Origin: Marsupella aquatica
Taxonomy: Eukaryota; Plantae; Marchantiophyta
Length of the DNA stretch: 64,000 bases
Direction: 5' to 3'
Assembly: GCA_973895155.1 (NCBI GenBank)
Contig: OZ316892.1
Location: 21,019,619 to 21,083,618 of the forward strand
The notes below the pieces were generated by a model, which was given only the letters and a program-made list of their open reading frames with translations, ran no database searches and was not told the DNA's origin. The position numbers and the translations under genes are program-made. Of the stretch, positions 8,777 to 29,200 are shown in pieces (position 1 is the first letter of the stretch; each line of letters begins with the position of its first letter).

Positions 8777-10981
8777 TCATGACGGCCAGTACTCCTCGTC
8801 CTCATCGTCATCCTCATCTTCAGAACTCATGTCAAGATCATCATATTGCTCGTCATGCCCTCCTTTGGATTTCGACTGGACATTGCTGCGAACAGCAGCT
8901 CGTCTAGTGGCGATGAAGGACCTTTTACGCTTGGCAGACGCCGGAAGATGAACTTTGCCAACAGAACCACCATCACAAAATCCCCCAGCTTCATCACCCC
9001 ACTCCGATTCCGAATCATCCAAGCTTCCATCATAGCACAAACTAGGAGCTGACCCTCTTATGAGCTCCCTGTGCTTCTTTGGAAGAACTGAGCCTGTGCA
9101 AGAGGACAATAATGGTCGCCCACCCTGGTACGCAACAGCCAGCGGTCCCTGAGGTGATTCCGATCCTGCTTTAGGTACCATCGCAGCTCTTTTATCACCA
9201 ATGTAGGGAATCGATCCCATGGCTGGAGCGGAAACAGATGATATCTTTGCTGGCACCAAGCGACCCAAGGAAACGTAACCCTTGTAATCTTCATTGTTGA
9301 GCATGTTCTCCTCAGTTAAAATACCCTTGACATTTGTGGCAACTTCCACTGCTGGCTGGTTGTGAGCTTCTCTCCTGACTGCATCCTCTTCCTCAAACCT
9401 AAGAACTATCTGCTCCAAGTCCTGCAGTCCCTCTCTTACAACAACCGATCGACCTGCCCCACAATTGCATTCGCGTATTTCCTTGGCATGATTGAGACAC
9501 ATGGGTGTCGCGGAACAGCGGCAATTCACAAATGCAAGATAGCACATATGTTTGCACAGGACACACATTACACTGCCATCAAAGCCAGGTGATCTGCAAA
9601 TTATCTGTGCTCCTCGACGTTGAAGAAGCCACCTGACCTGGTGTTGGAACTTCACTAAACGCACGAATGCGACTTTTACGCTGTGTTGACGTCTCCTAGC
9701 GTTATCACTGATATTTGTTGCCTCCTGTCTCCCTTTGGAGGAGACCGATGCAGAGGATGCACCAACACTAATTGCTTCCTTACAAAGTAGCTCCTCATGA
9801 GGTAGGAGAGGAATCCGCTTCAGCAGCTCATAGCGAGCACAAGCAGCAGCTCCAAATGGAAACCAGTCCCCCATGGTGAAGTTAACAGCCTCGCTACAAT
9901 TGAAACCATGACTGAATCCTGCGTGATAGGCGCGAGGAAAGGTTATGATGAATTCACCAGGCGATTGAATAGCCCGATAGCTAGGAACCCCGTGCTCAAT
10001 TAAAAGCTCGGGAGAAAACATGGTTGTCTTGCCAATTAGCAGATCGTAGGCCAGACCTTCGTGTCCAGCAGTCAAGAGCTCTTTATCATATACATAGTCC
10101 TGGACGACTTGCTCAAAATGGGGAGCTGATTGCCCAGGAACTCCATACCATGTCTTCGGAGCACCACTGTGATGATAGTTGATACTAAATAGGTAATGAT
10201 CTTCAACATGCCAAGCAAACATAGCAAATGCCATTCCTATATATAACATGGGTTCCGTGACTCCCGGGATTGCAGTTTCTAAAAGCCGCAACGTGGAATC
10301 GGCAAGATGTGAGAAGTTATTCAGGTTCCATTTGCTCATCCCTAGGATGTCAGTGGGGGATGACGAGAATGCACTCCCTTCGATGTCAGAACCATACTCA
10401 ACATTGATCTTCCCATTATTGAGTTCCTTCCAGAATTCTGCTTCCATAAACTTTGGTGGAAGACATGCTGTGCTGCCGAATCTGCGAGAATAGAACTTGT
10501 TTGCCATCTTCTCATATTCATGAAAGGTATACTGCTGTCCACTTATCAAAAACTTGTGCATATCTGAAGAATCCCAATTGGAAAGCCGCATAGGCTGTAC
10601 TCGAGGTGTGAACCTGAAACCTGATTTCTCTCTAGTAAGGACACATCCAGCAGGGACGGAAGCAACGGAAGGCGAGACAACCTTACAGATACCATACTTT
10701 GAAGCCTCAGGCGATATTTTTTGAATATAGTCTATTGGGTCCTCGAATTCCTTTCTCGTGGGATAATAAACCGGACATGCAGGAAGCTTGTCAGCCCAGC
10801 TCATATCGATGACATTGTGCACTGCCTCCACCTGTGCTTGAACATTTGATCTTTCTGCCTGCATTCGCCTTCGTTGCATTACTAGCTTCACCCTTAAGTT
10901 GTCTGCCTTTAATTGAGATTCTGGAGAAGCACCTTGTCGTAACGCCCAGTATGTCAAACCGTCTCCTCCACTTCTCGCCAT
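8777..10981 (-). CDS. JmjN-JmjC-C5HC2 zinc-finger histone lysine demethylase (plant KDM4/JHDM3 group, JMJ706/JMJ13-like); single coding exon
   Basis: Uninterrupted ORF; first ATG at 10981 (the track starts at an upstream GTG, 11020). JmjN: CPVYYPTRKEFEDPIDYIQKI..GICKVV. JmjC Fe-binding residues: WHVEDH...AYHAGF. C5HC2 finger: CVLCKHMCYLAFVNCRC...CLNH...CNC. Acidic C-terminal tail. Confidence 0.93.
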   Translation of the reverse strand: MARSGGDGLTYWALRQGASPESQLKADNLRVKLVMQRRRMQAERSNVQAQVEAVHNVIDMSWADKLPACPVYYPTRKEFEDPIDYIQKISPEASKYGICKVVSPSVASVPAGCVLTREKSGFRFTPRVQPMRLSNWDSSDMHKFLISGQQYTFHEYEKMANKFYSRRFGSTACLPPKFMEAEFWKELNNGKINVEYGSDIEGSAFSSSPTDILGMSKWNLNNFSHLADSTLRLLETAIPGVTEPMLYIGMAFAMFAWHVEDHYLFSINYHHSGAPKTWYGVPGQSAPHFEQVVQDYVYDKELLTAGHEGLAYDLLIGKTTMFSPELLIEHGVPSYRAIQSPGEFIITFPRAYHAGFSHGFNCSEAVNFTMGDWFPFGAAACARYELLKRIPLLPHEELLCKEAISVGASSASVSSKGRQEATNISDNARRRQHSVKVAFVRLVKFQHQVRWLLQRRGAQIICRSPGFDGSVMCVLCKHMCYLAFVNCRCSATPMCLNHAKEIRECNCGAGRSVVVREGLQDLEQIVLRFEEEDAVRREAHNQPAVEVATNVKGILTEENMLNNEDYKGYVSLGRLVPAKISSVSAPAMGSIPYIGDKRAAMVPKAGSESPQGPLAVAYQGGRPLLSSCTGSVLPKKHRELIRGSAPSLCYDGSLDDSESEWGDEAGGFCDGGSVGKVHLPASAKRKRSFIATRRAAVRSNVQSKSKGGHDEQYDDLDMSSEDEDDDEDEEYWPS

Positions 10982-11300: not shown

Positions 11301-12058
11301 CTGCAAAGACGAAATAGACAAGTTATCAAGTGATGGTCGGACGTAATGTTCTCGCAACAAAGCTCTTACGAAACTCATGTCTCACAAATTATCTTTTCTC
11401 AGCTGGACTCATTCTTCCTTCAAATATTCTACAGTGGTTGCCTCACCAGAAGATTAAATGTAGGAACCCAGTATTACAACTATAGGTTTGACAAAGGGAA
11501 GGACTGAGTTGAGCTATCTACAATTGGCTGGCCAGATATCAAACAGTAGATAGCAGCAAAGGTTCTTCTTAACCGAAATAAGATCGGCGTAAATTTTTTT
11601 CCTAAACAACGATAGATCCAGAGTATTACTCAGCATAATTTTAGAAGGGTTTAATAATCGTGTCTATTTGATACTCCGCTGTGAGCTGGACATGAGTCGC
11701 GTACAGGTCCGTGAAATATTGGAGACACTCAAGTCCGCTGGACTCAATCAAGGTGTCAACTTTATGGCCTTGAAAAGTTATGACATGTGGTCTAGGATAC
11801 TCCTGGATAAGTAAGCACACCAGAGGGAGCGCGTTCGTGCGAACACGGAATGGGAAAGCTACACGTCGCCTGTTCAGTCCAGTCTGCACCTGTCGGCGTG
11901 TATGACTGAGTCGATGTGAATGCTATCAGCGGGACGAAAGAGGAAGTGAACGTAACGAAGGGAAGGGAAGACGAACGGATGGAAAGAGAAACAGGAGAAC
12001 GGGAAGAGAAAACAGAGGAAGGAAGAGGAAGAGCAAGGACGTTTACGACGTGACATAC
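11301..12058 (-). other. Probable 5'-UTR intron of the JmjC gene
   Basis: Minus-strand donor CAG|GTATGT at 12058 followed by a CT-rich tract; acceptor TTTGCAG| at 11301. No coding potential seen. Not confirmed by transcript data. Confidence 0.4.
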
Positions 12059-14740: not shown

Positions 14741-16329
14741 CCATTTAGTCGTGAAAAGTAGTTAGATTCCACCTTTCCAAGTCACTTTCTACTAAAATTA
14801 GCTAGTTACTCTCAGTCCCATTATCCAGAATTTAACGGTAATGCTTAAATTTAGGAGATCTAAAAGGAAAAAATTAGTTTCAGCATCTTTTATTCACAAG
14901 AAAAACCTTAAATATTACACTCCTCCAGACCCTTCCAGTTCCGGCCCTCTTCGCAGTCACACATTTGACCCTGCTCAAACTACTTTACCTCCAGGGGTAA
15001 TCTCTTATCCCGAGACCGACAGTAACAAGCGTCAGATGCTGTCAAAACATTATTATAAACTCTAGATATATTATTAGTTCAGTTTATTATTGTGACCAGA
15101 TAGTTTCGGTCGGTCATGATCTGGTATAATATAAGTATAGTATTTTCGTTGGGATTCTCGGAAAGCAAAAGGTACTGGTACACGGTAACTTTTACTGTCT
15201 GGTACACCGTTAATAACAGAAACCGAAACTACCAATATGGTATTTGGACAGCTTCATTGATGATCCTTGCTCTGGGTGCAGGGTATCGAACTGCCGTGGA
15301 GCACAGTACGACGTCCACGGTAAGCGTCCACCAAGCCCGCTCCAGAAAGTTTAATTATTTGTTTATTTGCCTTTTCATATTTACTTCCCTCGACAACTGC
15401 ATTTATGCTTTATACTAGAGTGTTCGGCTGGAAGCTAGAAGAGAACAGGATCTCCTGTTTTGTAAGAATCCAACTTTTCATATGATCTTCCAGAAATTCA
15501 TTTTTTTACTAGGATGGCAAGAATTCGTCTCCTTTAAATAAGAATTCAAATTTTCATAGGATCTTTCAGATACTCATTTTGACTAGAATGGCATCGATAA
15601 TACTCATAGTCGTACATAACGTAAGAGCGTGTTGCGATCCAGTGTTCTCTCTCTACCGGTGTGTATGGACTGTAGTTTCTTTGACTTTCTATTTGTCCAT
15701 GTTGTCCACTGTTTCATGTACGAGTTGGTGCCTTGGTATGTGGTTATTGTGTTGTTGTTTTCGTCTTCAATTGAGTTTTTGTGGCCCTCTTGATTTGGCC
15801 CAATACTACTGCTCGTATTTTTTTAAACTCATCCAAGTGTGTGGTCCAACTACACAGCCCTCTCACTCTGGCCTGGTTTTCCTTTTGTCGCAGAAGACAA
15901 AAATGTAAATAACTCATAAGTTGCTTGGTCGATTTGAACTCACTGAACCCATTGTAGAGCCAAAGATACCCTTCTCCACACCTCTACCAAAAGAAGCCAG
16001 TGACGACCAAAACAGGGGGATGAGATTGTCTCTTTATACACCAAACTGCACAGGTTGGAAACTGCCAGAAAAGGGTCAGCCCAAAGATGACTAGCAAGGC
16101 CCACACAAGGAGACGGAGCCAAAACCCAACGAGATAGCAAAAGTAACAAGGTATTGCATTTTGTGAGCATTAGCAGACCAAAAAGAAACACTTTGATTGC
16201 TTAATTAGAAAAAACAATATTCCTTTACCCAATATCTACAGTAGCACAAAGGTATACGCAAGTTGCAACCATCACGATCATCTGCACCTTTGCATGATAT
16301 TTCCTTAATTGTCACTCAATTAGTTCAGG

Positions 16330-16507
16330 TGTCGTGACATATAGTATCGTAGCCATAGTGTATCGAAAACATACAAGTCACCAGCAATGCATATGTGCAA
16401 GCTGCTAGCAACCAACATGCATGTAGAAAAAGTCCAATCACATTCACAAGTGCCAAGAAAAAGCAACTGAGGTGGTATGTACGTAGTGGAGGTGTAAACC
16501 TCTATAT
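16330..16507 (-). repeat. Split repeat A (178 bp), terminal copy
   Basis: Direct repeat of 16870-17047 (offset 540); about 5 mismatches, all transitions. Confidence 0.92.
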
Positions 16508-16867
16508 ATAAAAGGCGTAAGAGAAACAATTGTACTGAAATCGAATCAAAAACCGGTAGGATGCCAAGATCGGCCGGGGGCATCTAACGAATCACTGTGT
16601 GAATCCCGTGTACGGAACCGACGAGCACTGTCTGAGCTCTGTCAACAGCGATTCAAGAAGAACTGAAAAACCAACAAAGAGAAACACACCCTAAGTAGAT
16701 CAAGTCAAGGCGTCACACTAACAAGCACGTTTTGCTTCAAGACCGGCCTAGACTTGCTACAAGAACATGACACTAACTCAAGTAGTACACTAGCCCTAAC
16801 TACATACCTAGCGGGCATGCGAGGGACATGCCGATGTGCACAAGCGGCACTGTCCCTCGGCATGACA
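16508..16867 (-). repeat. Split repeat B (360 bp), internal copy
   Basis: Direct repeat of 25937-26296 with about 9 mismatches; ends in CATGACA. Confidence 0.93.
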
Positions 16868-16869
16868 GC

Positions 16870-17047
16870 TGTCGTGATATATAGTATCGTAGCCATAGTG
16901 TATCAAAAACATACAAGTCACCAACAATGCATATGTGCAAGCTGCTAGCAACCAACATGCATATAGAAAAAGTCCAATCACATTCACAAGTGCCAAGAAA
17001 AAGCAACTGAGGTGGTATGTACGTAGTGGAGGTGTAAACCTTTATAT
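16870..17047 (-). repeat. Split repeat A' (178 bp), internal copy abutting the PPT
   Basis: Starts TGTCGTGA two bases (gc) after the CATGACA end of B; matches 16330-16507. Confidence 0.92.
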
Positions 17048-17054
17048 CCCCCCC
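17048..17054 (-). other. Polypurine tract (plus-strand primer) candidate
   Basis: G7 run on the minus strand ~30 bp after the pol stop codon and immediately before A'. Confidence 0.7.
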
Positions 17055-17086
17055 AGACCACAGCCAAAAGGAGGGCTGAAGAAAAG

Positions 17087-17230
17087 TCAGGTAGCACAGG
17101 AAGGGCAAAACCATAACCCTTCTGGCACCTGGGTAAGTTCAGGCCGAAGGCAGAAATGATGGTACCCTCCATTGCAATTATCACACAGCAGCATCTGGTT
17201 AGCATCGTCAATTTGCAAACACACTTTGCA
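17087..17230 (-). CDS. C-terminal PHD finger (C4HC3) of the integrase
   Basis: CKVC-x8-LCDNC-x4-HHFC-x11-WFCPSC followed shortly by the stop codon. Confidence 0.9.
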   Translation of the reverse strand, partial: CKVCLQIDDANQMLLCDNCNGGYHHFCLRPELTQVPEGLWFCPSCAT

Positions 17231-17499
17231 AGGGTAGTCCACAGGTGGAATCCAGGTAGAAGTCACAATGGTGGGATCCAAGTTAGGCAGATGACAAGGA
17301 GCACAATTCTTGGCATTGTCAGCAATTGTGCGCCCATCTGCCCCTTGTAACTCTAGCACTCCAGACGGTCGAATAGCTTTAACCCTGAGAATAGTACAAC
17401 TGGTAGAGGTGTCCAGGGTGTCGTTAGCTTGCCGCTGCAAGTACACAAAATCTCCCACATCAAACTTCCTGACCTTGGGCTTAAAAGTGCCCCCTCGTG

Positions 17500-18420
17500 T
17501 GTGTGTGCATAACACAGTGTGTCCCTGTGTTGTGCAATGGCCAAATTCTCCATGGCCATGGGCATAACCCTCCTAAATAGGGCAGCCCTCTCAGAGATCA
17601 CATCAGACCAAGTCACAGCTGAATCCAAGTCCACCACCTGAAGCATGTGAGCAGCAATAGCAGAAGGTGGAACTGGGTGACGACCAAACAACAAGAAGTA
17701 GGGAGAAAAGTTAGACAGTGATGCATGTCTGGACATCCTATACCCCATGGCAATGTAGGGTAAGGCCAGGTCCCAATCCTCCTTGTTTTTGGTGAGGCAG
17801 ATCTTCCGGAGGCCCTTCTTGCATGTCTGAACCATGCGCTCTGCCAAGCCATCTGCCTGTGGGTGATCTCGTGATGTCCGGCGATGATCAATGAGGGCCT
17901 GATCAAGCAGCTCCTGGAACTCTCCTCTGAATTCTGATCCCTGGTCAGTGAGACATTCTGCACAAGCTCCAAAGCGGTTGAGAACTTGTTGAAGGAATGC
18001 CTGGCTGGTGCTACGGGAGGTCTTATCTGGCAATATCACAAGTTCTATCCACTTGGAGAAATGCTCTATCATGATCATGATGTAGAGATTACCCCGAGAT
18101 GTGAGGGGTAATTCTCCAGCCAAATCACATGACCAACGATAAAACATGCCCTGAATAGGGAGTGGATGAAGTGTGGGTTGCCGAGATATGAAAGAAGTCC
18201 TTACCCTATCACACTGTTCACACCGGGCAATAACATCTTGAACCTGGCCATGCATGCCTCTCCAATGATAATGAGGGACCAAGAGGCTGTAAGTCCTCTT
18301 AACGCCAAAATGACCAAGCTCATAATGTACCTTACAGATAAGGCCAACCCTCTCATGAATGGGTGGAACCACCACTTCCCTGTCTGGCAAGCAGTGCACG
18401 AGATGATCTCCCTTCCACAA
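17500..18420 (-). CDS. Integrase (H2C2 zinc finger + DDE core) portion of pol
   Basis: HYELGH...CEQC; catalytic DLAG / TDQGSEF / AERMVQT; SPYFLLFGRHP. Confidence 0.93.
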
Positions 18421-18438
18421 GTAACGCTTGGACCTTTG

Positions 18439-20145
18439 CTAAATTCGGTCTCTCTGGGTTGCAATAACATGTACGGGGTACTCCCCATGCTGCAAAAATC
18501 TCAGAGTGTCATTGTCCTCCCATATGTCCACCACAGGTTGGTCAACAACGTAGCATGGCAGCAAAGCAAGATAGGTAGATGCATGAAATGTGGGCAGGAT
18601 GGAAACCTGGTCAAAATCCTGCCATGCATCTAAGGAATCATCAGAGGCAATCAAAGGGCTACGGGACATAGTGTCAGCATTTTGATGTGTCACACCAGGC
18701 CTATGAATTACCTCAAAATCATACTCCTGGAATATGAGCGCCCAACGAGCAAGCTTGCCAGTAAGGTTGTCGTTGGTCATCAACCACTTCAAGGGTTGGT
18801 GGTCGATGTAGAGAACAAACCTGGTCCCATAGAGGTAGGGCCTGTAATGTATGACAACCCACACAACAGCAAGGCATTCACCCTCATACGAAGAATAATG
18901 ACTCTCTACCTGATTGTTGCTCCTGGATGCATAGGCAATGACGTACTCTTTACCTTCCTCATCATGCTGGCCTAGAATGGCACCAATCCCAAGGGCACTC
19001 CAATCTGTGTGTAGCACAAAGACCTTGCTGAAATCAGGTCTTCTCAACACCGGGTATTCTGAGAGCTTCTCCTTCAAAGTGGCAAATGTTGCCTCAGCAT
19101 CTGTACTCCATGTCCAAGTCACATTCTTTTTCAACAAAGCATACAATGGGTGTGCAATGGTGCTGAAATCTTTGATGTAAATCCGGTAGTAATTGCACAA
19201 CCCAATAAAACTCCTCAAAGTGTGAACATCGGTAGGAGTGGGCATTTCCAAGATGGATACCACCTTGGCCCAGTGAGCCATGGTTCCATTTGGAAGAATG
19301 CAGTGCCCAAGGTATACTACTGATCTGACAACAAATTCACACTTCTTGGGGTGTATCTTTAGGTTCACCTTCTTAAGCCTCATGAATAGCTCCTCGAGGT
19401 CAAGTAGATGCTGGTCAAATCCTTTGTTGTGGACCAACACATCATCAATGTAGCATTTCAGAAACTCAGCACCTTGAAGAACCTGGTCCATGACTCTTTG
19501 AAAGAATATGGGCGCATTCTTCAAGCCAAATGGCATCACCAACCACTCCCATAGTTGGTTACTACCATGGAAAGTTGTTTTCTTGCGGTCCTTTGCAAGC
19601 AACAAAATCTGGTTAAAGCCTTGCCTTAGATCCACATGAGTGAAGATGTCTGAGTCTCCAATGCTGTCAAATAGCTCCTCTGGCTGTGGCATGGGGTACC
19701 TATCCTGGGGTGTGACCAGGTTCAATGGCCTGTAGTCCCCACACATGCGCTTCTCTGTCCACAATCCACTGGAATCCTTCTTTGCTGGCATCACTGTAGC
19801 TGCTGCAAAATCTGATGTAGATGGCTGAATAAGACCAGCTTCATATAACTCTTGGCACCTCTCATCCACCAGCTGCCACTCATGCTTACTCAAACGATGT
19901 CTCCGCCTGAAGATAGGTGTTTCCTCAGCCAACTCAATGGAGAACTGCATGGTCTTGCACTTACCCAAGTCCTTCATAGAGAAAGCAAACACGTTCTCAT
20001 GCTTGAGGAGCAAATTCAGCAGCTGGTCCTTCTGTCTTTTACTCAGGTGGTTGCCCATGATGAACATGTAGTTGGCAACACTAGGAATAGGACCTGATGT
20101 ACTCGTGCTTGAAGAGCCAGAAGTGCTAGCCTCCCCACTGTCCAA
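18439..20145 (-). CDS. Reverse transcriptase + RNase H portion of pol
   Basis: RT: CGDYRPLN, DLRQGFNQI, MPFGLKNAP, YIDD, KKCEF, YLGH. RNase H: TDWS, SSYEGECLA, DHQPL, NADTMSR. Confidence 0.95.
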   Translation of the reverse strand: MDSGEASTSGSSSTSTSGPIPSVANYMFIMGNHLSKRQKDQLLNLLLKHENVFAFSMKDLGKCKTMQFSIELAEETPIFRRRHRLSKHEWQLVDERCQELYEAGLIQPSTSDFAAATVMPAKKDSSGLWTEKRMCGDYRPLNLVTPQDRYPMPQPEELFDSIGDSDIFTHVDLRQGFNQILLLAKDRKKTTFHGSNQLWEWLVMPFGLKNAPIFFQRVMDQVLQGAEFLKCYIDDVLVHNKGFDQHLLDLEELFMRLKKVNLKIHPKKCEFVVRSVVYLGHCILPNGTMAHWAKVVSILEMPTPTDVHTLRSFIGLCNYYRIYIKDFSTIAHPLYALLKKNVTWTWSTDAEATFATLKEKLSEYPVLRRPDFSKVFVLHTDWSALGIGAILGQHDEEGKEYVIAYASRSNNQVESHYSSYEGECLAVVWVVIHYRPYLYGTRFVLYIDHQPLKWLMTNDNLTGKLARWALIFQEYDFEVIHRPGVTHQNADTMSRSPLIASDDSLDAWQDFDQVSILPTFHASTYLALLPCYVVDQPVVDIWEDNDTLRFLQHGEYPVHVIATQRDRI

Positions 20146-20399
20146 GTTGCTAGCATGCTACTGATAAGGTGATGAGGCCTCTCCAAGGCCTGTTGTATCT
20201 GTTGCTCTGGTCTGATCCACACCATGAAACTCAGAAATAATATCAGCCACGTTACAAGGGACCTCCTCCCCCCCAACACTTGGACTGAAGCGGTGAGTGT
20301 TGAATAGAGGTAAGTGCACTTGGTCTGGATGCCATGGAGCAGCACCATGGAGTGGTAGGGCTGGAACTCCTGATGCTGGATGAATGTACATCTAAAAAA

Positions 20400-21355
20400 G
20401 GATGCAGGTGACCAGAAGCCAAGTGAGAGCATTAAGATCCATTACCCTGCCAAGTAAAGCATTCCTGGCCAACTTGGTGATTTTGGTGTGGCATGTAGTA
20501 CCGGGTTGGAAGCCCATAGCCCGTTCTCTCTCCTCAGGAATAGGTTCATCCCATGTACCGGTAGAATGTCGGTAAACCAGGCCAGGACCATCACCCTGAA
20601 AAGCATGTGCACCTGGAAAGGACACAAATGTAGGCCAAGCAGCACGGGGCTGTCCAATGGTATTGGCTGGATACCAAGGTGCTGGCTCTTGCCGTGTAGC
20701 TAGTTGGCAAGAACTGTCAGGATCCAAAATCTGGTCCACTGTGAGGTTAGTGTCCCTGGATGTGTGGTGAAGAGCTAACTCCAACAAGGAAGGTGGTGCA
20801 AGGTTAGTCCAAAAGTTACGAAGACAATGTGCATAAGAACCACAGTGCACTGCATCAATGAGAAGGGGTGGTCCCAAGTAGTGCTGGACCACACTAAAAT
20901 CCTCTTTGACCTGTGGTCGCTGGTCAAACTGAGATGGAGTATTCTCAATGATATAACCAACAGCAGGATAATGGGATTGAGCCCAGGTGAGAATCTGAAC
21001 CAATGTTGTGAAAAGGCCAGAACGAGAATCATGCAGTCCAGCACCAGGACCAGCAGCTAAAAACCCTTTGGCATTCCCAACCAGCTATGATCAAATCAAG
21101 GGAGCCAAGAAGGGTTAAGTGCCGGTGCTGGACAAGCTGGATATCTGGAGGAAAGAAAGAAAATGTAGACTTCCATGCACTGTGTGGAAACTGCTGAGGA
21201 AATCGCTCTGAAAATTCCAGCAGACGGGATTCAGCCACTTGCCTTGCACCTGGATCAATATCCACATAGATGTACTACTTCACCACCATGCCAGATTGTA
21301 GGAGAGCTTCCAGACCTGTAGAAATGCCACCAAAAAGCTCAAGCAATGTAAGGCC
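20400..21355 (-). CDS. C5 cytosine DNA methyltransferase domain, DNMT3-like (one stop, one frameshift)
   Basis: Motifs in canonical order: I LLELFGGI; II YVDID; IV LDLIIAGWECQ(GF); VI GYIIENT; VIII YAHCLRNFWTNL; IX ERERAMGF; X RNALLG. Confidence 0.88.
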
Positions 21356-21689
21356 ATCCGGAGCAGGAGTCCATGTAACTGGTGCGCTCAAGATTGGGGC
21401 TATTGGCTGTCCATTGTGCTGCCCAAGGTCTTCAAACTTGCGCAATGCAGCCACCAAAGGTCCATGGGCTGCTTGGAGCCGTTGTACCACCTCTGGTTGA
21501 TGATCCATGTTGCTGGAAAGTGTTGCTATACGTGCAGCAGCATGTGCAGCAGCCACCTCATCGTCATCCTCCTCAATCCAATCTTGCAATGGGTGGTTGA
21601 CATAGGTAGCTGTGTGCACTGCTTTCAACACACAGTGGTGAGCCATAGGTGTATGGGCACCATGCAAATCAAGTGGAATGTAGCCCAAG

Positions 21690-22060
21690 TGTGAGCCATC
21701 AGTATGCCAATCAACTCTGTAGTATGCATGCTCATGCCAGTTGTCAATGGTAAAACCTGGTGGGAACAAAGCCTCCTGGCCAATGAGCACATCATACGTA
21801 GTGGCATTGGTAACCAAACATCTGACTGGGAAATGTAGTTCCTGATCTATACCGCCATTAAAAGTGAGAGTGAGTAAAGTAGAACTCTCACCCAGCACAT
21901 CCTCCACAGTGCCACTAGCAGTCCGAATGTGCCACTTGGATTGCTGTAAATGATCAGTCAACAGTCCCATCTTCTTGGCAAACCGAATGCCCAATATCAC
22001 TGGTTGAGCACCTGTGTCTAGCATGACCACCTGAGGAGTGTGACCCTCCAACTTGACCAC
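21690..22060 (-). CDS. Retropepsin-like aspartic protease domain (boundaries approximate)
   Basis: VMLDTGAQPV active site and downstream YDVLIG motif. Confidence 0.85.
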
Positions 22061-23158
22061 TGAATTCCTGTTGTCAACAATGGCAATGGTGGTGGAAACT
22101 GAAGTCCTGTCACTAGGCACCACTCTTGGCAAATGATGAGGTACCTTGTGAAGGGAGTTAGTGTCCACGGTCTTTCCACTCAACAACATAGCCAGGAAAG
22201 ATGGAGCAGCATGACCAGAATCAAGTGTAGCTCTGGTCACACAATCAGTAGCAATCGGTACTGGGGCAGCCAAACCAGTGCAAACATGTAAAGGAGAAGA
22301 AGAAGGTCCAGTATGTACATGAGATTGGACCTCCAAAACCGGTGTCACATGGGCTGATGAAGAATGTAGTGAACCCTCTAGCGCCCTGAGGACAGCTCTA
22401 GCATCTAGCTGTAAATCATGGCAACTGAAAAGTGGAGTTGTAAGAATCTTTTGTGCCATACCGGAGGTGAAATGCTCAAGCAGCTCAGGAGAAACAACTC
22501 CCTGTGAAATGTCAGCAGCACCTGGTGGTGGAATGGATGTAGTTGCAGCTCCCTCCCCCCTCGCCAACAAGGTGCGCTCTTCAGCAAGTGTGAGGGGCTG
22601 AAAAGATTGGGGCAAGACAGCCCGAGCTTCCTTGGCTCTAGTCATAGGACCAGCAGCAAGACCATCAGCCTGTACAATGCGGCGCATGGGAGCAATACGG
22701 GAGGCAGCACTGGCCTGCTGGTAAGAAAAATAGGAAGGGCATAATGAATCTGAAAGTTCTGCTGTAAGGCCAGACTATGGAGCAGAGGATAGCACACACT
22801 CACCCATATGAGCATCAAATGGTAAGCCATAGAAAGAGCAGGGTAGAGGTGCTGAACTGTCAGTGGTGCCTGGGCCAGGGATGGGTTGCACATGACCAGC
22901 CGGTTGAGAAGGACCAGCAAAGGCAGTTGACTTGCCTTTGATGTTGGCAAGTTGGGCACGTAGGGACTCAACCTCATTAGTTAGAGATTGGAGTTGAGTT
23001 GCCTGTGCGTTGTGAGCCTCCTTCTGAGCTGGTTGCTTCTGATGCTGCTTGGGCGGTTTGTTGGCACTGGATGCTTTGCCACTGGAAGGAGGAGCAGTTG
23101 ATGCAGTAGGAGCCCTCCTAGCTAGTGGGGGAGTGGAAGCAAGAGCAGGAGGAGGGGC

Positions 23159-24364
23159 CTACTGTCGTAGCTGCTTCCTCTCTAGGAATTTGGCAAAAGA
23201 AACTGCCTCCAAGTAACCCACTTTCCCGCAAAAATCACAAGACAGGTCCTCAACAACAATATCACACTCATTAGCCTTGTGATTGGGGTTACCACAGTAG
23301 TTGCAAGATGGCAGCATGAAAGCAGCATGTGCTGGCTTGGTCTTGGAACCATACTGTGGCACACGAGAAGGAGTGGCCAGTGTAGGGGCAGCAGCCTGGT
23401 ACCTGGATCGCGGTGGACGTGCAATACTGGCCTCATAATGTGCATGGGCCAACTCAAGTTTCTCAGCAGTGTCATAGACATTGAGCAATGTGTAGCTGTC
23501 TCCAAACTTTGAGAATACTTGCTGCAACACTTGCGAATGGAGAGCTGGTGTGCCCTCCAATGCACGAAGATAGCGATGAGCAGCCTCCAAGTCAGTGATG
23601 CTCTGGGTATCCTTGTTCAACTTGAGAAGCCGGCGATACATCATCTTCAAGGTTTCATCGCGCTGCCTCACAAAGGTGGCCAACTGCATGATTTTCTCAG
23701 CACTCTTGATTGAGAATTCCAATTCAAGAACCTGGAAAAACTCAGCCACTGGATCAGCAAAGGCAGGAGAATCAATGGTGGGAGAAATGCCTGATGTAGC
23801 CTCTGCCAAGACAGTGGGAGTAACTGGCGCAGTGGTAGGAACTGGAGTAGGAGGGGAAGTGGCAGGAGCAGCAGCATGGGCTGCAATGGCATTCTGTAAG
23901 GCCAATTGTGAGGCTGCCGCAATTGCACTGGCATAGGTAGGGTTAGGCAACTGTGTGACAGCAAGCAGCCATTGAGAATGTTTCTCATACACATCCAAAG
24001 CCTCATGGTGCACATACCTGGCTAGCTGCTTAAATGCAAAAGCATTTATGAAATTGCTGCCATACTTAAACTCCAATTCGTATACGATAGTGTAGAAAGT
24101 GGATTTGAACTCACGCAAAGAAACAGTGCCTGGCCACCCGCTGAAGCGCTCAATGCGGCCAGATGAGTGGCTGGCATCCATGCTGTATGTCGGTGAAGCT
24201 GGAACAACCACTGATGCAGAAGGGGTAAATGGCAATGAAGTGATAGCAGGCTTCGGAGTAGTGGTAAAGCGACCGCCAAATTGAGCAGGATTGCGTGGTG
24301 TGGGTGCTGCTGCTGTCTGTGGCCGTCTTTGAAATTGCCAAGACTCCAATGAAATTGGTACCAA
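23159..24364 (-). CDS. Gag portion with CCHC zinc knuckle(s)
   Basis: CNYCGNPNHKANEC fits CX2CX4HX4C; degenerate second knuckle CDFCGKVGY. Position is 5' of the protease. Confidence 0.8.
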   Translation of the reverse strand: MVPISLESWQFQRRPQTAAAPTPRNPAQFGGRFTTTPKPAITSLPFTPSASVVVPASPTYSMDASHSSGRIERFSGWPGTVSLREFKSTFYTIVYELEFKYGSNFINAFAFKQLARYVHHEALDVYEKHSQWLLAVTQLPNPTYASAIAAASQLALQNAIAAHAAAPATSPPTPVPTTAPVTPTVLAEATSGISPTIDSPAFADPVAEFFQVLELEFSIKSAEKIMQLATFVRQRDETLKMMYRRLLKLNKDTQSITDLEAAHRYLRALEGTPALHSQVLQQVFSKFGDSYTLLNVYDTAEKLELAHAHYEASIARPPRSRYQAAAPTLATPSRVPQYGSKTKPAHAAFMLPSCNYCGNPNHKANECDIVVEDLSCDFCGKVGYLEAVSFAKFLERKQLRQ

Positions 24365-25766
24365 TGGTCGTGGATCACTCCGTAAATGGTACCTGGGTGT
24401 TGGTGGCGATGAGTTGCTACCTCCTGGCTTGTCGGCTGAGATGCTGCATGCTCACCCGGGGTGCCAATGGGAAAGAAATTGACAAGAAAAAGGAGTGGCA
24501 GCCCCAAGGCTAGGAAATGAAACCCACGAAGGAGGCAAACGGTGCAAGGCAGCAAGGCAGCAATGTGTCGAATGTGTAAACGCACAGAAAAGCCCCTTAA
24601 AAACTCCGGAAAGGCCTACTGCTGGCGGCAATAAAGAAATCCGGGAAAAGAAAATAGAAGTGGCCCCCCTTTAAGTGTATACATTGGGCCCCTCTGTGGA
24701 CCCAAAAACTGGCAGGAAAAGGGAAACCAAGAGGCGCGCGTCAGCGGGAAAAGAAAACCGGGCCAAGTGGGACACAGTATCGGGGCACGGTGCTCTATGG
24801 AGGTCGTCGATGGCAAGGTAAGAGCAAACGGAAAGAAACGGGCCCTACAAAATGTGAAAGGGGCCCCCTAAAGTGTATACACATCAGCCCGATGTGGTCC
24901 TGAGAGATGGAAACAGGTCGATCGTCGCGCGGCAAAAAAGCGAGACAAGCCAAAAAAGGCGAAAAGAAAACGGGAAGAGTGAGGCGAAGAAAAGGAAATG
25001 AGCCCTGCATAGGGCTTCGCACCCCCTCCCCCCCTCCTTATGAGCTCCCGAAGCCTCCTTGGGGCTTCGTGCCCTGGCAGGCCTAAGTACTCCCGTGTGA
25101 GGGAGTTCGAATTGAACTCCCCTCTCCTCCTTTAATGCAGCTTGGGCCTTGTGCCCTCTCCTGGCACTCTCGCTCCCCCTCCCGGCCTCCTTTTATTGCA
25201 GCATAGGGCCTCGTGCCCACTCCTTGCACTCCTGCTCCCCTCCTCTTGGCTTTAATGCTGCTGAAGGGCTTCGTGCCCTGCAAGAGGACTCCCGAAAGGA
25301 GTCTATGTTTACTCCCCCCCTCTTCAATGCTGACAGCGGGCTCCGTGCCCTGTAGAAGGACTCCCGAAGGGGGTCGACGTTAACTCCCCCTCCTCGCGCT
25401 TAATTAAATGCTGGCAACGGGCGCGGGAGGAAGAAAAACGCCGAAGGGAGGGTGTGCGGCCCTATGCGCGACCCAGGGGCAATGATGAGCCCCGCATGTG
25501 TATACACAGGCAGGACTGGGAGGCACCTCACGACGGTAGCTGCGAGGGGAGGCAAAATGAAACAACGGCCGGTGAGAGAAAAGAAAGAACGGGACCCCAA
25601 AGGGTCGTGAAAACATAAGGCGAAGGGAAGGTGGTCGCACTGTGACCGGAAAACACCGAATATGGCCCGAAAAAGGTCGTGGCAGTCAGCAACCGGCAGC
25701 CATAGTCGAAAGCAGCAAAGGGTCCCCAGATGCAACCGGAAAGCAAAAGTCGGGCTCCAACGGGAG

Positions 25767-25803
25767 TGTTATGTGTATACTTATGTTAAGTATACACATA
25801 ACA
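25767..25803. other. Perfect 17-bp-arm hairpin in the retroelement 5' leader
   Basis: tgttatgtgtatactta-tgt-taagtatacacataaca. Confidence 0.9.
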
Positions 25804-25923
25804 TCATATTGAACCCATAATTTCAACTCGTCCCTCCGATGTCCGTCGAATAAATTGCAATGGCTTCACCAGAAATTGTCATAATTGTCACGAACAATCT
25901 TCTTCCCCTCACCACTATCTCAG

Positions 25924-25938
25924 CAGTTCTTCTTGAAT
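25924..25938 (-). other. Self-priming primer-binding site candidate
   Basis: cagttcttcttgaat abuts B' and is the exact reverse complement of 26080-26094 (attcaagaagaactg) inside B'. No TGG-initiated tRNA-type PBS is present at this position. Confidence 0.7.
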
Positions 25939-26296
25939 AAAAGGCGTAAGAGTAACAATTGTACTGAAATCGAATCGAAAACCGGCAGAATGCCAAGATC
26001 GGCCGGGAGCATCTAACGAATCACTGTGTGAATCCCGTGTACGGAACCAACGAGCACTGTCTGAGCTCTGTCAACAGCGATTCAAGAAGAACTGAAAAAC
26101 CAACAAAGAGAAACACACCCTAAGTAGATCAAGTCAAGGCGTCACACTAACAAGCACATTTTGCTTCAAGACTGGCCCAGACTTGCTACAAGAACATGAC
26201 ACTAACTCAAGTAGTACACTAGCCCTAACTACATACCTAGCGGGCATGCGAGGGACATGCCGATGTGCACAAGCGGCACTGTCCCTCGGCATGACA
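25937..26296 (-). repeat. Split repeat B' (360 bp), 5'-terminal copy
   Basis: Matches 16508-16867; begins TGTCATGCC on the minus strand; followed on the + strand by the TSD CAGG. Confidence 0.93.
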
Positions 26297-29200
26297 CAGG
26301 GAGTAACTTTGTGGTCCGAATGTGGTTTACCATTGGGATAGGATTTTGGTCTGTCTTGGGCCTTGGGTTTATAGTATTTGAGCTTGTGTATATCTTGGCA
26401 TGACTCCTTTTATGCTTAAAAGTATTTTATATAGAATGGATTTCTGTTTGAATTATTTTCTTTGGGATCCTGTCTCCCAGTATGGCACCCTTTAATATTC
26501 TTTATAATCTTATATATTTTCGATGGAAGTACAGTGTGGCACCCTTTATTCTTTACAATCTTTCATATATTCGATGGATTCCGGAGTCAAACTTTGACTA
26601 CTTGGTAGCTAGAGATCTCCTTCGTATGCTGTAGTTACGAACTAGGCTATCTCCACCTAAACATCTCCTCGGTACGGGTCACCTTTTCCAATCCAAAACA
26701 AATATAAAAAGGTACAAAATCACCATCCTACTATCCTGATAGGATCCCAAGATAGAAAAATTTTGTCCTCTAGTGTTCCCCACTCAAACAGATTCTCTGT
26801 TTGGATGAATCTAGTTTATACTCATATGTGATATGTAGTGTAAGGTAAGATTGATTGGGGCAGGTAAGGTAAGGTGAGCTAAGCTAGGATTGTAATGCTG
26901 CAAGTGTTCCTGCTCCAATGAGATTTTATTTGGTGAGTTCTTATCATAGGATTAAAAATGAGAAGATCCTGTGACGGACTTGTGTGCAAAGGTTGAGGCG
27001 AATGCAATGTGGGATAGGATGAAAATGATGAACATGCTGAATATGCATTGGCCATAAGTTGATGGACACAGGCAATTTTGTGGTGTGCATAATTATGAAA
27101 CCTAGTTTTGTTGACAAAATTGCAAATTCCTTATGTATTTTCCTGGGTACAGGGGCTAAAACCATCTCTGGAAAATATGAACCTAAGTGTAGATGCAACC
27201 ATGAAGATAAGGAGGTGCTAGAATTATTTGCATTTCATATTCTTCTCCTTGAGATGGCTCGTAGTAGCTTGCAAATAAGTGTTAGTCAATAACCAAACAA
27301 GACAAAGTAACTTGAGTAGTCTACCCAACAAGGGAATGTAGAGACAAAGATGAGAGGAGCTTGTACTAGTAACAGTTTTGGGTAGTGCTTGAGGCATTCA
27401 TACGCTTGGCCTTTGTTCACAGTCAATGACTGCATAGGACAAAGAAAAGGGACGAAGCTGAGGGCAAATCGAATTATGAAGGCAATATTTGATTGTGAGT
27501 CTGGATGCCAACCAAAAGAAATACATGGACAAAGAGTGAGCTTGTGATCTATGATGCATCACAAGTCATACGGGGAATGGCTTTGCTTATGGGTTGTTGT
27601 CCTCATTATTGTTCAAGGAAGTGACGTATTGGTCCTGGGCCCAATAAACTGATAAACTCGATCCGGTAGCTCCAGGGGTAATCGGGAATAATCTTTATAA
27701 TATTTTGCATATCCGAAATGATTGTTATAATATTTTGCATATACTGAGCAAGAATTTAGATCAATCTTCTTGGTCTCGTGACCAAATAGATCTTTGGTCA
27801 TGGAACGGAATTTAGGGTACATACATCTATACATGGCAGTTGCCGGATTTGCCACATCATAGCGCATTATTCCTTATCGGTAAAAGTAGGTGCCAGCAAA
27901 ACGCAAAGCTTTCCTTATTTGTAGTAGATAAGTTTGGATTTGTAGCTCGTCGGCTCTACAGAAAATGAAGATGCTCTGACTTTGTACGCCAACCGGGCCG
28001 GGTCAGACCTGTAACTACAGTCAATAAACATTTCGACCATGATTGTCCAGACTGTGACCAGGGTTATCTGCTTGTCGGTGTTTATATGGCAACACGACAG
28101 AGGAGAGATCCTCGGCTTCGCTGGTCAAACGCAAGGAGGTTCCATTTCCAAATGGGGCCCACCATGAGTGGGTGCACGTCATCGTTTACCCGCAGGAGAT
28201 CCTGATCGACGTTCAGTTGTCCCCCTCAGGGGCGCCAGATCTACTGGGGCCGTTCGATTTCAAGCCCTAGCGTACAAGCGACAGAGGATAATGTAAGGTG
28301 AGGTGAGGTGAGTCTACCAGCCACCTGACCGTCACTCCTTGATCGTGGTTCCTGGCTGAACTTACGGCGTACTCTGTCTAGTACCGGTACAGTGATTGAA
28401 TGCTTTTGAATGGAATAGTATTAAATACTAATATCACGAATTGGAACAACATGTATATGTAAATAATTTTTTAGACGAGAGTGCTTTCTACTGTACCTGT
28501 CACCATCCAGATAAGCAACAGGACGTATTGTGTGTGCCAATTGTCATTTAGCTAAAAAATCTGTGGACAAATATAGAGTATCTAAAGCTCTTTATTGCAC
28601 ATGCTTACACTATTTAGGCAATGATCGACATACTTACACTATTTGGGCAATGATCGAACCGGTAACAAGTTTTGATTATGCTATACTATGAATACACATT
28701 TCAGATTTTGTATCACTAGCAATATTACCAGTTCGTTCCTTGAAGGTAAAGAGAAATGAAGAAAAATAATCTTGCATAATAAAACTTAGATGCTAAAAGT
28801 TACTCTTTGCCCATACTTTTTTTGTCCACCTTCATGTCAGTTTTGTCTTTATTTGAAATCAATATCATTTTTGCCCATCCTCATTTAAAGTTTTTTATTG
28901 AGACTCATGATTACTTTTGTTTGTATTGAGGGATATTAATATGCATTTTTATTTCAATGTGCCATAACAAAGTGTATGATTTGTAATATTTAGATTTTGA
29001 ATCAAGCTTGGGACCCTTTAAAAAAAATTATTGTCCTAGAGTATATTGTTCGCATCCCACTTAATTTAATCCTTGCCTTCCTAGAAGTCTACTTTCCTAC
29101 TAGTTTTAGATTCAATAGTTTGAATCTAATCTCTTTCGGTCACTTTCACTAGAAAGAACCTCGATCTGTCGTAGTGAGGGAGAGGAATAATTATGGCCAA

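Follow-up and report, generated by a model that had tools for sequence, protein, structure and literature searches.

A Ty3/Gypsy-type retroelement with permuted repeats in Marsupella aquatica may integrate from end-joined cDNA cut at an internal palindrome

We describe a retroelement of Marsupella aquatica that belongs to a high-copy, widespread group in which the ends used by the integrase and the predicted repeat of reverse transcription are out of register. New copies of this plant-type Ty3/Gypsy family probably arise through linkage of the two outer cDNA ends, B end to A start, and a cut at the internal palindrome of the primer-side repeat, a reading that is drawn from sequence comparisons and to which we assign a probability of roughly 0.55. 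The element lies in a window of 64,000 nt, by which we mean the whole stretch of DNA analysed (assembly GCA_973895155.1, OZ316892.1:21,019,619-21,083,618, forward strand). It was compared with a census of 80 related metagenome loci from genomes other than that of the window, which share 65-84% amino acid identity in the integrase (IN); the closest relative by IN DNA is 76% identical.

In minus-strand orientation, its order is B'(360)-internal-PPT-A'(178)-gc-B(360)-A(178) between TG...CA ends, where PPT denotes the polypurine tract. The 5' copy of the 360-nt repeat, B' (25937..26296), begins with TG at 26296, and its 3' copy, B (16508..16867), begins with TGTCATGCC; the two are 97.5% identical over 360 nt (16508-16867 vs 25937-26296). 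The 178-nt repeat is present as an internal copy, A' (16870..17047), and as a terminal copy, A (16330..16507), which ends in GTCACGACA with an integrase-type CA end, and here the identity is 96.7% over 182 nt (16326-16507 vs 16866-17047). The 5' part of the element reads cctg, TGTCATGCC..B'..CCTTTTAT, then TCAAGAAGAACTG and the internal region, and the 3' part reads GGTCTGGGGGGG, ATATAAAGG..A'..CACGACA-gc-TGTCATGCC..B..CCTTTTAT, ATATAGAGG..A..CACGACA, cctg. The terminal B-A unit, with its B/A joint at 16508/16507, is partitioned exactly by B' and A', with an overlap of 0 and a gap of 0, and no further A or B copies occur elsewhere within the 64-kb window. On the minus strand, these coordinates confirm the repeat order and positions given in a preliminary description of the locus. 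A TATA-like motif at the start of A (ATATAAAGG / ATATAGAGG) was considered as a promoter cue and rejected, because relatives carry ATACATGAG at this place.

The coding domains, all on the minus strand, follow the pol order of Ty3/Gypsy elements in Pfam searches: PR, RT-RNaseH, H2C2 + rve integrase and a PHD finger. A gag-like ORF with a CCHC knuckle (23159..24451) was recognized in translation and has no Pfam match. Pfam assigned the aspartic protease ORF (21275..22774), the reverse transcriptase and RNase H (18439..20157) and the integrase (17353..18438), which comprises the H2C2 zinc domain and the rve core with a D,D-35-E readable in the translation. The PHD finger (17096..17230; PF00628, E 5.4e-12) lies in the ORF 17087-17572, 3' of the integrase, and is found instead of a chromodomain, for which Pfam gave no match at the integrase C-terminus. 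A tyrosine recombinase (Phage_integrase) was not matched by Pfam in 20 of the 21 window ORFs of at least 100 aa. Between PR and RT lies a C5-DNA-methyltransferase-like domain (20392..21379) that is interrupted by one stop and one frameshift. In the window copy this region has no Pfam match, and a PDB sequence search returned only a weak match to DNMT3A (E 1.8); in the Atlas, 29 of its 30 matches are PF00145 clusters (best 0.95), and PF00145 is present in at least 24 of the 120 long relatives listed. An intact ORF set was found in none of 19 related copies.

Among the relatives, the integrase is followed by A'-nn-B-A in 34 of the 80 loci (type 1), while 35 of the 80 end at A' and consist of B'-internal-A' without a terminal repeat (type 2); the remaining 11 loci are cut or unclassifiable. 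The preliminary description had suggested a comparison of copies and had named conventional LTRs in other copies as the refuting case. Conventional two-LTR copies number 0 among the 21 loci covering both ends, and the same loci hold 11 type-1 copies and no copy of the mirror layout, B/A-gc-B'-internal-A'. This follows from the absence of A-nn in front of B' in all 21 loci, which cover B' plus the upstream flank. These comparisons support the view that the permuted layout is a design of the family, rather than a rearrangement or a misassembly.

In the window, the 4-bp target-site duplication CAGG is exact on both sides of the element (plus strand), beside its 3' end (16326..16329) and beside its 5' end (26297..26300), which bears out the earlier claim of TG...CA outer ends with a clean duplication. 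The search for an empty site, likewise suggested beforehand, yielded a contig in which 16325 is joined straight to 26297 with a single CAGG; thus, the whole unit is one insertion. The ends TGTCATGCC...GTCACGACA are conserved among relatives. Besides the window copy, an exact 4-bp duplication flanks 6 of 10 evaluated type-1 copies, 4 of 9 type-2 copies and 1 of the 2 solo B-A units (L036 and L077), and in several of the remaining evaluated copies the duplication matches at 3 of 4 bases. TG...CA ends combined with a 4-5-bp target duplication, a feature of Ty3/Gypsy elements, are found in the window and in 10 related copies. Judged by these flanks, the TG/CA ends are the integration ends.

It is very improbable that the structure arose once at this locus, as a misassembly, the remnant of a tandem insertion or a rearranged two-LTR element. 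Short-read contigs cover both flank/element joints with 0 differences but reach only about 31 nt into the element, and independent read support is thus confined to these two joints and does not extend to the internal A-B-A' joints. Against this stand the identical layout and boundaries in the 34 related loci, which come from independent assemblies and of which many have their own duplication, as well as the lack of conventional copies in the 21 loci and the empty site that marks a single insertion.

The predicted limits of the reverse-transcription repeat differ from the integration ends. A polypurine-tract-like GGTCTGGGGGGG (17048..17059, minus strand) adjoins A', and GGGGGGG(G) is found in this position in 33 of 33 complete type-1 related rows. 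Directly 3' of B' lies the predicted self-primer binding site TCAAGAAGAACTG (25924..25936, minus strand): the 13 nt past B' are the perfect reverse complement of B positions 203-215, a stretch located at 16653..16665 (minus strand) in the 3' B copy, where the predicted R start would lie, and by sequence complementarity at 26082-26094 in B'. Among 11 metagenome copies, 8 have a stretch of 10-13 nt that can pair with a site 119-146 nt short of the B end, and in these 8 copies both pairing partners differ from those of the window (TCAAGAAGAACTG vs TCTAGAAAAACT), which points to compensatory change between subfamilies; in the other 3 of the 11, a primer-site complement of at least 10 nt is missing. 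We predict that this site serves self-priming (Tf1-type) rather than priming by a tRNA, and complementarity alone would place the R start at the complementary site in B. Because the PPT adjoins A' and the primer site adjoins B', the predicted reverse-transcription repeat is A-gc-B. The PPT, the primer site and the 4-bp duplications support this delimitation, including the earlier proposal that the TG/CA ends lie inside the LTR defined by reverse transcription.

A different delimitation is suggested by the TG...CA ends with their short inverted repeats and by the solo B-A units with duplications. The true LTR might be B-A (TG...CA, 540 bp), and all copies would then be deletion derivatives that have lost the 5' A plus primer site and the 3' PPT-B part. 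This is hardly credible, since two deletions with breakpoints on the same LTR base would be required in every copy. Moreover, A' is in every copy immediately preceded by the G-run, and B' immediately followed by the predicted self-complementary primer site; none of the relatives shows A leading into internal sequence or the PPT leading into B.

Within the predicted A-gc-B repeat lies the internal junction GACA-gc-TGTC (16864..16873), in which the spacer (16868-16869) is flanked by the CA with which A' ends and the TG with which B starts. It is a perfect 10-bp palindrome and the predicted cleavage site of the integrase. The preliminary description had recognized this junction at 16861-16877, and it is as described there, with the palindromic part at its core. 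The A-nn-B spacer is 2 nt long in 34 of 34 related copies and has a purine-pyrimidine sequence in 28 of 30 unique copies (AC 11, GC 7, AT 6, GT 4, AA 1, TC 1), as would be expected for transitions away from GC, and we infer that these transitions reflect CHG methylation. Formation of the spacer anew at each insertion was considered and rejected, because its length is constant and, within CAGCTG, its variants represent transitions from GC. The spacer showed no relation to the target duplication.

The B/A joint is exact in 11 of 29 unique copies; inexact joints show -2 in 5 copies, -1 in 3, +1 to +6 in 6, and 4 others deviate in different ways. Among these 4, the joint of one locus (L055) contains +135 nt of the internal 3' end, PPT included, and in another (L035) B is cut at position 77. 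Such indels are missing from the control joints, i.e., B'/primer site (20 loci) and PPT/A' (33 rows). The B/A joint thus has the appearance of a scar that end joining leaves behind with every insertion, and part of its variation could stem from mutations acquired later in AT-rich surroundings. The earlier interpretation of 16507/16508 as a circle-type junction gains from this result, in so far as the joint behaves as if it were made anew per insertion.

The state of the B/A joint also bears on a templated, DIRS-like regeneration, in which RNA would run from B' to the terminal A, template switching would rebuild the ends and the integrase would trim them, without any end joining. The layout matches that of known split-direct-repeat retroelements (PMC5890265), and template switching by RT with microhomology and extra bases could mimic a scar. 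However, given the places of the primer site and the PPT, the terminal A lies outside what is copied in the standard two-jump scheme. An inherited B/A joint should furthermore be as uniform as its neighbours in a star-like burst, yet no more than 11 of 29 copies have an exact one and the controls are clean, and the 135-nt insert with PPT in L055 is better explained by a misprimed cDNA end. We therefore regard templated regeneration as quite unlikely.

In the route that we favor, RNA would run from the complementary site in B' to inside the 3' B, and self-primed reverse transcription would yield [A-gc-B]-internal-[A-gc-B]. The integrase would assemble on the palindrome of the primer-side LTR, where both strands would be nicked after CA; it would cleave a duplex carrying GACAGCTGTC rather than process the A-start/B-end termini. 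The two ends then held by the integrase would be inserted, and host end joining would link the B end to the A start, either beforehand, in a 2-LTR circle, or as break repair. The preference for the primer-side palindrome is assumed, to account for the 0 mirror copies in 21 loci. The type-2 structure, B'-internal-A', could result from a 1-LTR circle, from A-A annealing during repair or from later A'/A recombination. In retroviruses, integrases have been described to cut palindromic LTR-LTR junctions, and 2-LTR circles arise by NHEJ, with about 40% of HIV junctions carrying the exact palindrome (PMC5314604, PMC1905944, PMC1180852).

The preliminary description had explained the layout by a 2-LTR circle that is opened by the integrase. 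In its broader form, covalent 2-LTR (and 1-LTR) circles would be formed first and then opened at any CA-gc-TG site, so that 2-LTR circles would give rise to type 1 and 1-LTR circles to type 2. The layout, the scar-like B/A joint and the fixed spacer agree with this model, and retroviral 1-LTR circles are described to outnumber 2-LTR circles, whose junction palindrome the integrase can cut (PMC5314604). What it does not explain is the lack of mirror copies, which it predicts to be equally frequent: 0 were seen in 21 loci against 11 type-1 copies, an outcome with a probability of about 0.5^11 if the choice were equal. As both sites share identical flanks of 180 nt and 300 nt, there is also no obvious cue for a choice between them. 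Opening at any site is for these reasons unlikely.

The IN tree is star-like and type-1 and type-2 copies are interleaved on it (22 changes vs a shuffled mean of 23.8), which indicates that the layout is determined by the single insertion rather than by the lineage. Within a copy, the A'/A and B'/B identities correlate (rho 0.61, n=11), which fits pairs that both started out identical when the copy was inserted. The metagenome copies are without exception old and degraded, and the root-to-tip distance is slightly greater in type 2 (p = 0.098). Type 2 could be wholly post-insertion in origin, and its count could be inflated by metagenome assemblers that collapse A'-nn-B-A to a single A.

In LTR retrotransposons and retroviruses, the integrase acts on the ends of LTRs that are built by reverse transcription. 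For a Gypsy-DNMT-PHD clade of green plants and algae, we tentatively propose, at slightly below even odds, that integration of end-joined cDNA is obligatory, with a double-strand cut at an intra-LTR palindrome and host repair completing every copy. If true, this would represent a third route, intermediate between the integration of linear ends in retroviruses and that of circles by tyrosine recombinases; the DIRS-like repeats would be a case of convergence and half of the insertions would be born without terminal repeats. Should the route favored for this family hold, circular or end-joined cDNA would be an obligatory intermediate here instead of a dead end, the transposition cycle would include host repair by end joining or annealing, and split direct repeats would no longer be diagnostic of tyrosine-recombinase elements. 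LTR finders that expect two identical terminal repeats will miss or mis-annotate the family, above all its repeat-less half, and dating by LTR divergence needs the A'/A and B'/B pairs here. The cutting of retroviral 2-LTR circle junctions by integrase in vivo is still debated, and the family provides a natural system for testing the cutting of junction palindromes in vivo.

The repeat order is shared with elements of the DIRS order (PAT, Ngaro, VIPER-type; A1-internal-B1-A2-B2), whose split repeats are usually explained by an intermediate that is circular or end-joined. These elements carry a tyrosine recombinase and are not known to make target duplications, whereas the window element has an H2C2 + rve DDE integrase and 4-bp target duplications. 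The preliminary description had regarded the inferred integration route as non-canonical for a DDE integrase. The two complete LTRs usual in Gypsy elements are missing from the window copy, but the layout has a precedent in KnitGypsy-Dnmt3 of Klebsormidium nitens, which combines a DIRS repeat structure with Gypsy domains (de Mendoza et al. 2018, PMC5890265, Fig. 4c legend). Both elements have a Gypsy-type pol, which includes a cytosine methyltransferase domain in KnitGypsy-Dnmt3 and a candidate, methyltransferase-like one in the window element, and a K. nitens protein (P0097; PF00145 + RVT_1 + rve) is 40% identical to the window RT-RH ORF over 96% of the query. The window element differs in its host, in the PHD finger after IN and in its broken methyltransferase-like domain without a Pfam match. 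The main-text parts of PMC5890265 that bear on KnitGypsy-Dnmt3 do not discuss target duplications, the primer site, the PPT, junction palindromes or a mechanism. Literature searches on KnitGypsy retrieved only the 2018 paper, with no mechanism described, those on split-LTR Gypsy elements retrieved nothing, and those on split direct repeats with integrase gave no DDE element by title or beginning of the abstract among the papers listed; a published mechanism for this layout was thus not found in the literature searched.

The predicted self-complementary primer site resembles that of the Tf1/sushi group, including the plant Tcn1 clade, but members of this group are described as having two conventional LTRs and mostly a chromodomain, in contrast to the permuted repeats and the PHD finger after IN seen here (Neumann et al. 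2019, PMC6317226). A palindrome of the CA-nn-TG type is also known from the retroviral 2-LTR junction (PFV, HIV-1), where a double-strand cut yields two processed ends (PMC1180852, PMC1905944, PMC5314604). The retroviral palindrome is made by the joining of LTR ends and belongs to a side route, while that of the window element lies inside the predicted reverse-transcription repeat and its use would be obligatory. Unlike in the retroviral junction, the joined cDNA ends of the window element (B/A) would not be the cleavage site.

Self-comparison of the window bore out the repeat order given in the preliminary description for the minus-strand element at 16330-26296. The terminal copy A (16326-16507) and the internal copy A' (16866-17047) of the 178-nt repeat align over 182 nt with 96.7% identity, the 3' copy B (16508-16867) and the 5' copy B' (25937-26296) of the 360-nt repeat share 97.5% identity over 360 nt, and there are no further A or B copies in the 64 kb. 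On the minus strand the sequence runs cctg, TG-B', a 13-nt site, the internal region, a G-run, A'-CA, gc, TG-B, A-CA and again cctg, and CAGG (plus strand) flanks the element as an exact duplicate. On the contiguous B-A unit, B' ends exactly where A' starts, with neither gap nor overlap. The A'-B joint (...GACA-gc-TGTC...) is a perfect 10-bp palindrome at 16864-16873. A 72-nt tandem duplication at 25250-25390 and a 37-nt palindrome at 25767-25803 lie in the leader between B' and gag.

The Pfam domains on the minus strand follow the order aspartic protease, reverse transcriptase (RT) with RNase H, H2C2 with rve integrase (IN), and PHD finger; the D,D-35-E residues can be made out within the integrase ORF. 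A scan that took in 20 of the 21 window ORFs of at least 100 amino acids revealed neither a tyrosine recombinase nor any other family in the rest of the ORFs. Between protease and RT, at 20392-21379 on the minus strand, lie cytosine-C5-methyltransferase-like motifs with one stop and one frameshift. This region of the window copy has no Pfam match, and against PDB sequences it yields a weak DNMT3A match (E 1.8). In the ESM Atlas, 29 of its 30 matches fall in DNA_methylase clusters (best 0.95), and PF00145 occurs with RVT_1, rve and PHD in 24 of the 120 listed long relatives of the RT-RNase H ORF. The PF00145-carrying relatives among the matches listed include Klebsormidium nitens, Marchantia polymorpha and Closterium proteins. 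The Atlas matches and the Pfam-annotated relatives combining PF00145, RVT_1 and rve support its designation as a putative cytosine-methyltransferase-like domain. The PHD finger (17096-17230, minus strand) follows the integrase, where chromoviruses have a chromodomain; its frame differs from that of the integrase ORF in the window copy, and PF00628 and rve lie within one protein in many relatives among the matches listed.

Four coded runs supplied Logan contigs, which were aligned to window positions 15800-26800. Both joints between flank and element are spanned by contigs with 0 differences (X1 record 1; X3 records 16 and 23; X4 records 24 and 30); these contigs reach about 31 nt into the element, and independent confirmation for this copy is thereby confined to its two outer joints. 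An 811-nt contig (X4 record 25) represents the empty site, with 16325 joined directly to 26297 and a single CAGG. It covers 15942-16325 and 26297-26742, differs from the window by about 5% and equals the filled-site contigs in depth; it could stem from another haplotype, from a homeologous locus or from a sample that was mixed. Summed contig depth is several hundred-fold higher in the element than in the flanks, which is not a copy number but indicates that the element sequence is highly repeated. In all four runs, summed depth over the leader between B' and gag (24608-25708) is about 50-fold below that of the rest of the element, and this leader seems to be an insert particular to a minor subfamily.

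Because the searched set contained no genome of the window's organism, relatives were taken from metagenome contigs, many of them long. The best 80 of 595 integrase-related loci (65-84% amino acid identity) were classified by self-comparison and by A and B profiles run over all 80, and the window's repeat order recurs many times among them. In locus L027, for example, B' (2709-2999) and the integrase (10001-10945) are followed by A' (11406-11584), B (11587-11879) and A (11880-12058). Such a type 1 layout, in which A', a 2-nt spacer, B and A follow the integrase, is present in 34 of the 80 loci, and a type 2 layout (B'-internal-A', then unrelated sequence) in 35; in the other 11 the contig was too short or the repeat was not found. 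The type 2 loci include a complex copy (L040, 11405-13151), in which there are three A segments and some 600 nt of internal sequence are duplicated. Seven near-identical pairs, probably one locus seen twice, were reduced to one member each, which left 30 type 1 and 32 type 2 rows. The permuted layout is the design of the family; its recurrence across related loci excludes a one-off rearrangement or a misassembly. An LTR of B-A order altered by deletions was likewise rejected, as all copies would then have to share the same pair of breakpoints.

The ends at which the integrase would have acted, TGTCATGCC... and ...GTCACGACA, are kept between the window and its relatives, while the remaining repeat sequence has diverged. 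Target duplications could be evaluated in 10 type 1 loci, besides the window with its exact duplication: six are exact at 4/4 (L024, L027, L037, L054, L055, L065), two match at 3/4 and two are poor. The nine type 2 loci evaluated comprise four exact duplications (L022, L046, L049, L072), four at 3/4 and one poor. As the copies' own repeats are 6-19% diverged from each other by self-comparison, some decay of 4-bp duplications is expected. Two solo B-A units, L036 (6131-6611, exact CAAT) and L077 (6060-6526, minus strand, 3/4), are the family's putative solo-LTR equivalents; alternatively, they may be direct insertions of a small fragment freed by cutting both palindromes.

The predicted boundaries of reverse transcription lie elsewhere. 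The G-run that abuts A' counts 7-10 G, both in the window and in 33 of 33 complete type 1 rows. Directly after B', the 13-nt site TCAAGAAGAACTG is perfectly complementary, in reverse, to B positions 203-215, a segment that lies 158 nt ahead of the end of B; by our arithmetic, such a match within a 360-nt repeat is expected by chance about 5 times in a million. The relatives carry TCTAGAAAAACT(A) after B', and 8 of 11 of them could pair there over 10-13 nt with a B segment that lies 119-146 nt ahead of the end of B; the complement is just 8 nt long in L024 and L041, and there is none in L057. Both complementary partners differ between the window and its relatives, a compensatory change. This pairing is a signature of self-priming of the Tf1 type, predicted for the plant Tcn1 clade by Neumann et al. 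(PMC6317226). Given this signature, R would start inside B, and A-gc-B would be the repeat expected under the standard two-jump scheme, with U3 predicted to comprise A, gc and the first ~200 nt of B, and R-U5 the remainder of B.

The two joints of the 3' cluster behave differently. The A-nn-B spacer measures 2 nt in 34 of 34 rows. Its readings in 30 unique copies are AC (11), GC (7, the window's reading), AT (6), GT (4), AA (1) and TC (1). Purine followed by pyrimidine accounts for 28 of the 30, the outcome to be expected of transitions that start from GC in a CAGCTG context. We read this joint as probably templated and inherited, and infer CHG methylation behind the spacer transitions. The TG of B has become TA in 8 copies, and changes at spacer and TG are nearly all transitions at C or G of CAG/CTG (L001-L075), which suggests methylation-driven decay of the copies.

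The B|A joint, where the end of B meets the terminal A, is variable. Among 29 unique complete copies, it is exact in just 11, 2 nt short in five (fitting the AT common to B end and A start), 1 nt short in three, and 1-6 nt longer in six, with added bases that often seem to resemble the first primer-site bases. Four copies are aberrant: L032 (-8/+1), L018 (altered), L035 (B broken off at position 77) and L055 (+135 nt). The L055 insert (11897-12031; twin L059) is made up of 135 nt from the 3' end of the internal region, G-run included, as would result had plus-strand synthesis of its source cDNA begun upstream of the normal PPT. At the control joints of the same copies there are no indels, neither between B' and the primer site (20 loci) nor between PPT and A'; near the former, a 17-nt subfamily duplication lies upstream in two loci and a deletion downstream in one. 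Since the integrase tree is star-like, inherited joints should be uniform, and the B|A joint looks as though it were made anew at each insertion. Retroviral 2-LTR circle junctions, which it resembles, are formed by host end joining, and HIV junctions carry the exact palindrome in only ~40% (PMC5314604). In a rival DIRS-like templated scheme, the terminal A would not be copied with this primer site and PPT, and a uniform B|A joint is predicted. In type 1 copies, A'/A and B'/B identities are correlated (rho 0.61, p = 0.047, n = 11), as they should be if neither pair had yet diverged at insertion.

Secure from these sequences are the permuted register of integrase ends against PPT and primer-site boundaries, the fixed palindromic A-gc-B, the scar-like B|A, the target duplications and the recurrence across diverged copies. 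The integration route as a whole we place at a probability of roughly 55%. Reverse transcription would yield [A-gc-B]-internal-[A-gc-B], whose outer termini would not be integrase substrates. The substrate would instead be the palindrome GACAGCTGTC, both strands of which the integrase would nick after CA, 2 bp apart, leaving already processed TG-B and A-CA ends. These would be inserted with a 4-bp duplication, and the host would join the end of B to the start of A. Formally, type 1 would correspond to a 2-LTR circle that is opened in its primer-side LTR, at the palindrome there, and type 2 to a 1-LTR circle opened at its sole palindrome.

The preliminary description had proposed a 2-LTR circle opened by the integrase at the internal CA-gc-TG. 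This formally fits type 1, but if a closed circle could be opened at both sites alike, the mirror layout (B|A-gc-B'-internal-A') should be as frequent as type 1. Among 21 loci covering B' and its upstream flank (11 type 1, 9 type 2, 1 cut), A-nn never precedes B', so that both the mirror layout and copies with two complete repeats are absent there; 0 against 11 favours the primer-side site. That earlier interpretation is largely upheld and now covers a whole family, with its directionality corrected, type 2 added and one precedent found. The primer-side choice might, speculatively, reflect that LTR turning double-stranded first after plus-strand transfer; equally speculatively, the remaining break might be repaired by end joining to give type 1 or by annealing of the two A copies to give type 2.

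The integrase tree has the two types interleaved (22 changes against a shuffled mean of 23.8), and the median root-to-tip distance is slightly longer for type 2 (0.96) than for type 1 (0.92; p = 0.098), which indicates that the layout is decided per insertion. Type 2 may arise at integration or later, when A' recombines with A. Some type 2 loci may also be A'-nn-B-A copies that collapsed in assembly, although four copies of this type have exact duplications. Only type 1 retains the 3'-side R region, and only type 1 should therefore found new copies.

Within the literature searched (PMC less about 1.7 million of its papers, and a minority of subscription journals), no other description of such elements was found. 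Retroviral integrases are documented to cut junction palindromes (PMC1905944, PMC1180852 and PMC5314604). In the K. nitens precedent (de Mendoza et al. 2018, PMC5890265), section 9 and the Fig. 4c legend mention neither duplications nor a primer site, and offer neither an analysis of junctions nor a mechanism. As that legend describes them, these DNMT-bearing Gypsy elements combine the repeat structure of DIRS elements with Gypsy domains, and share the oddity of the window element within the same clade.
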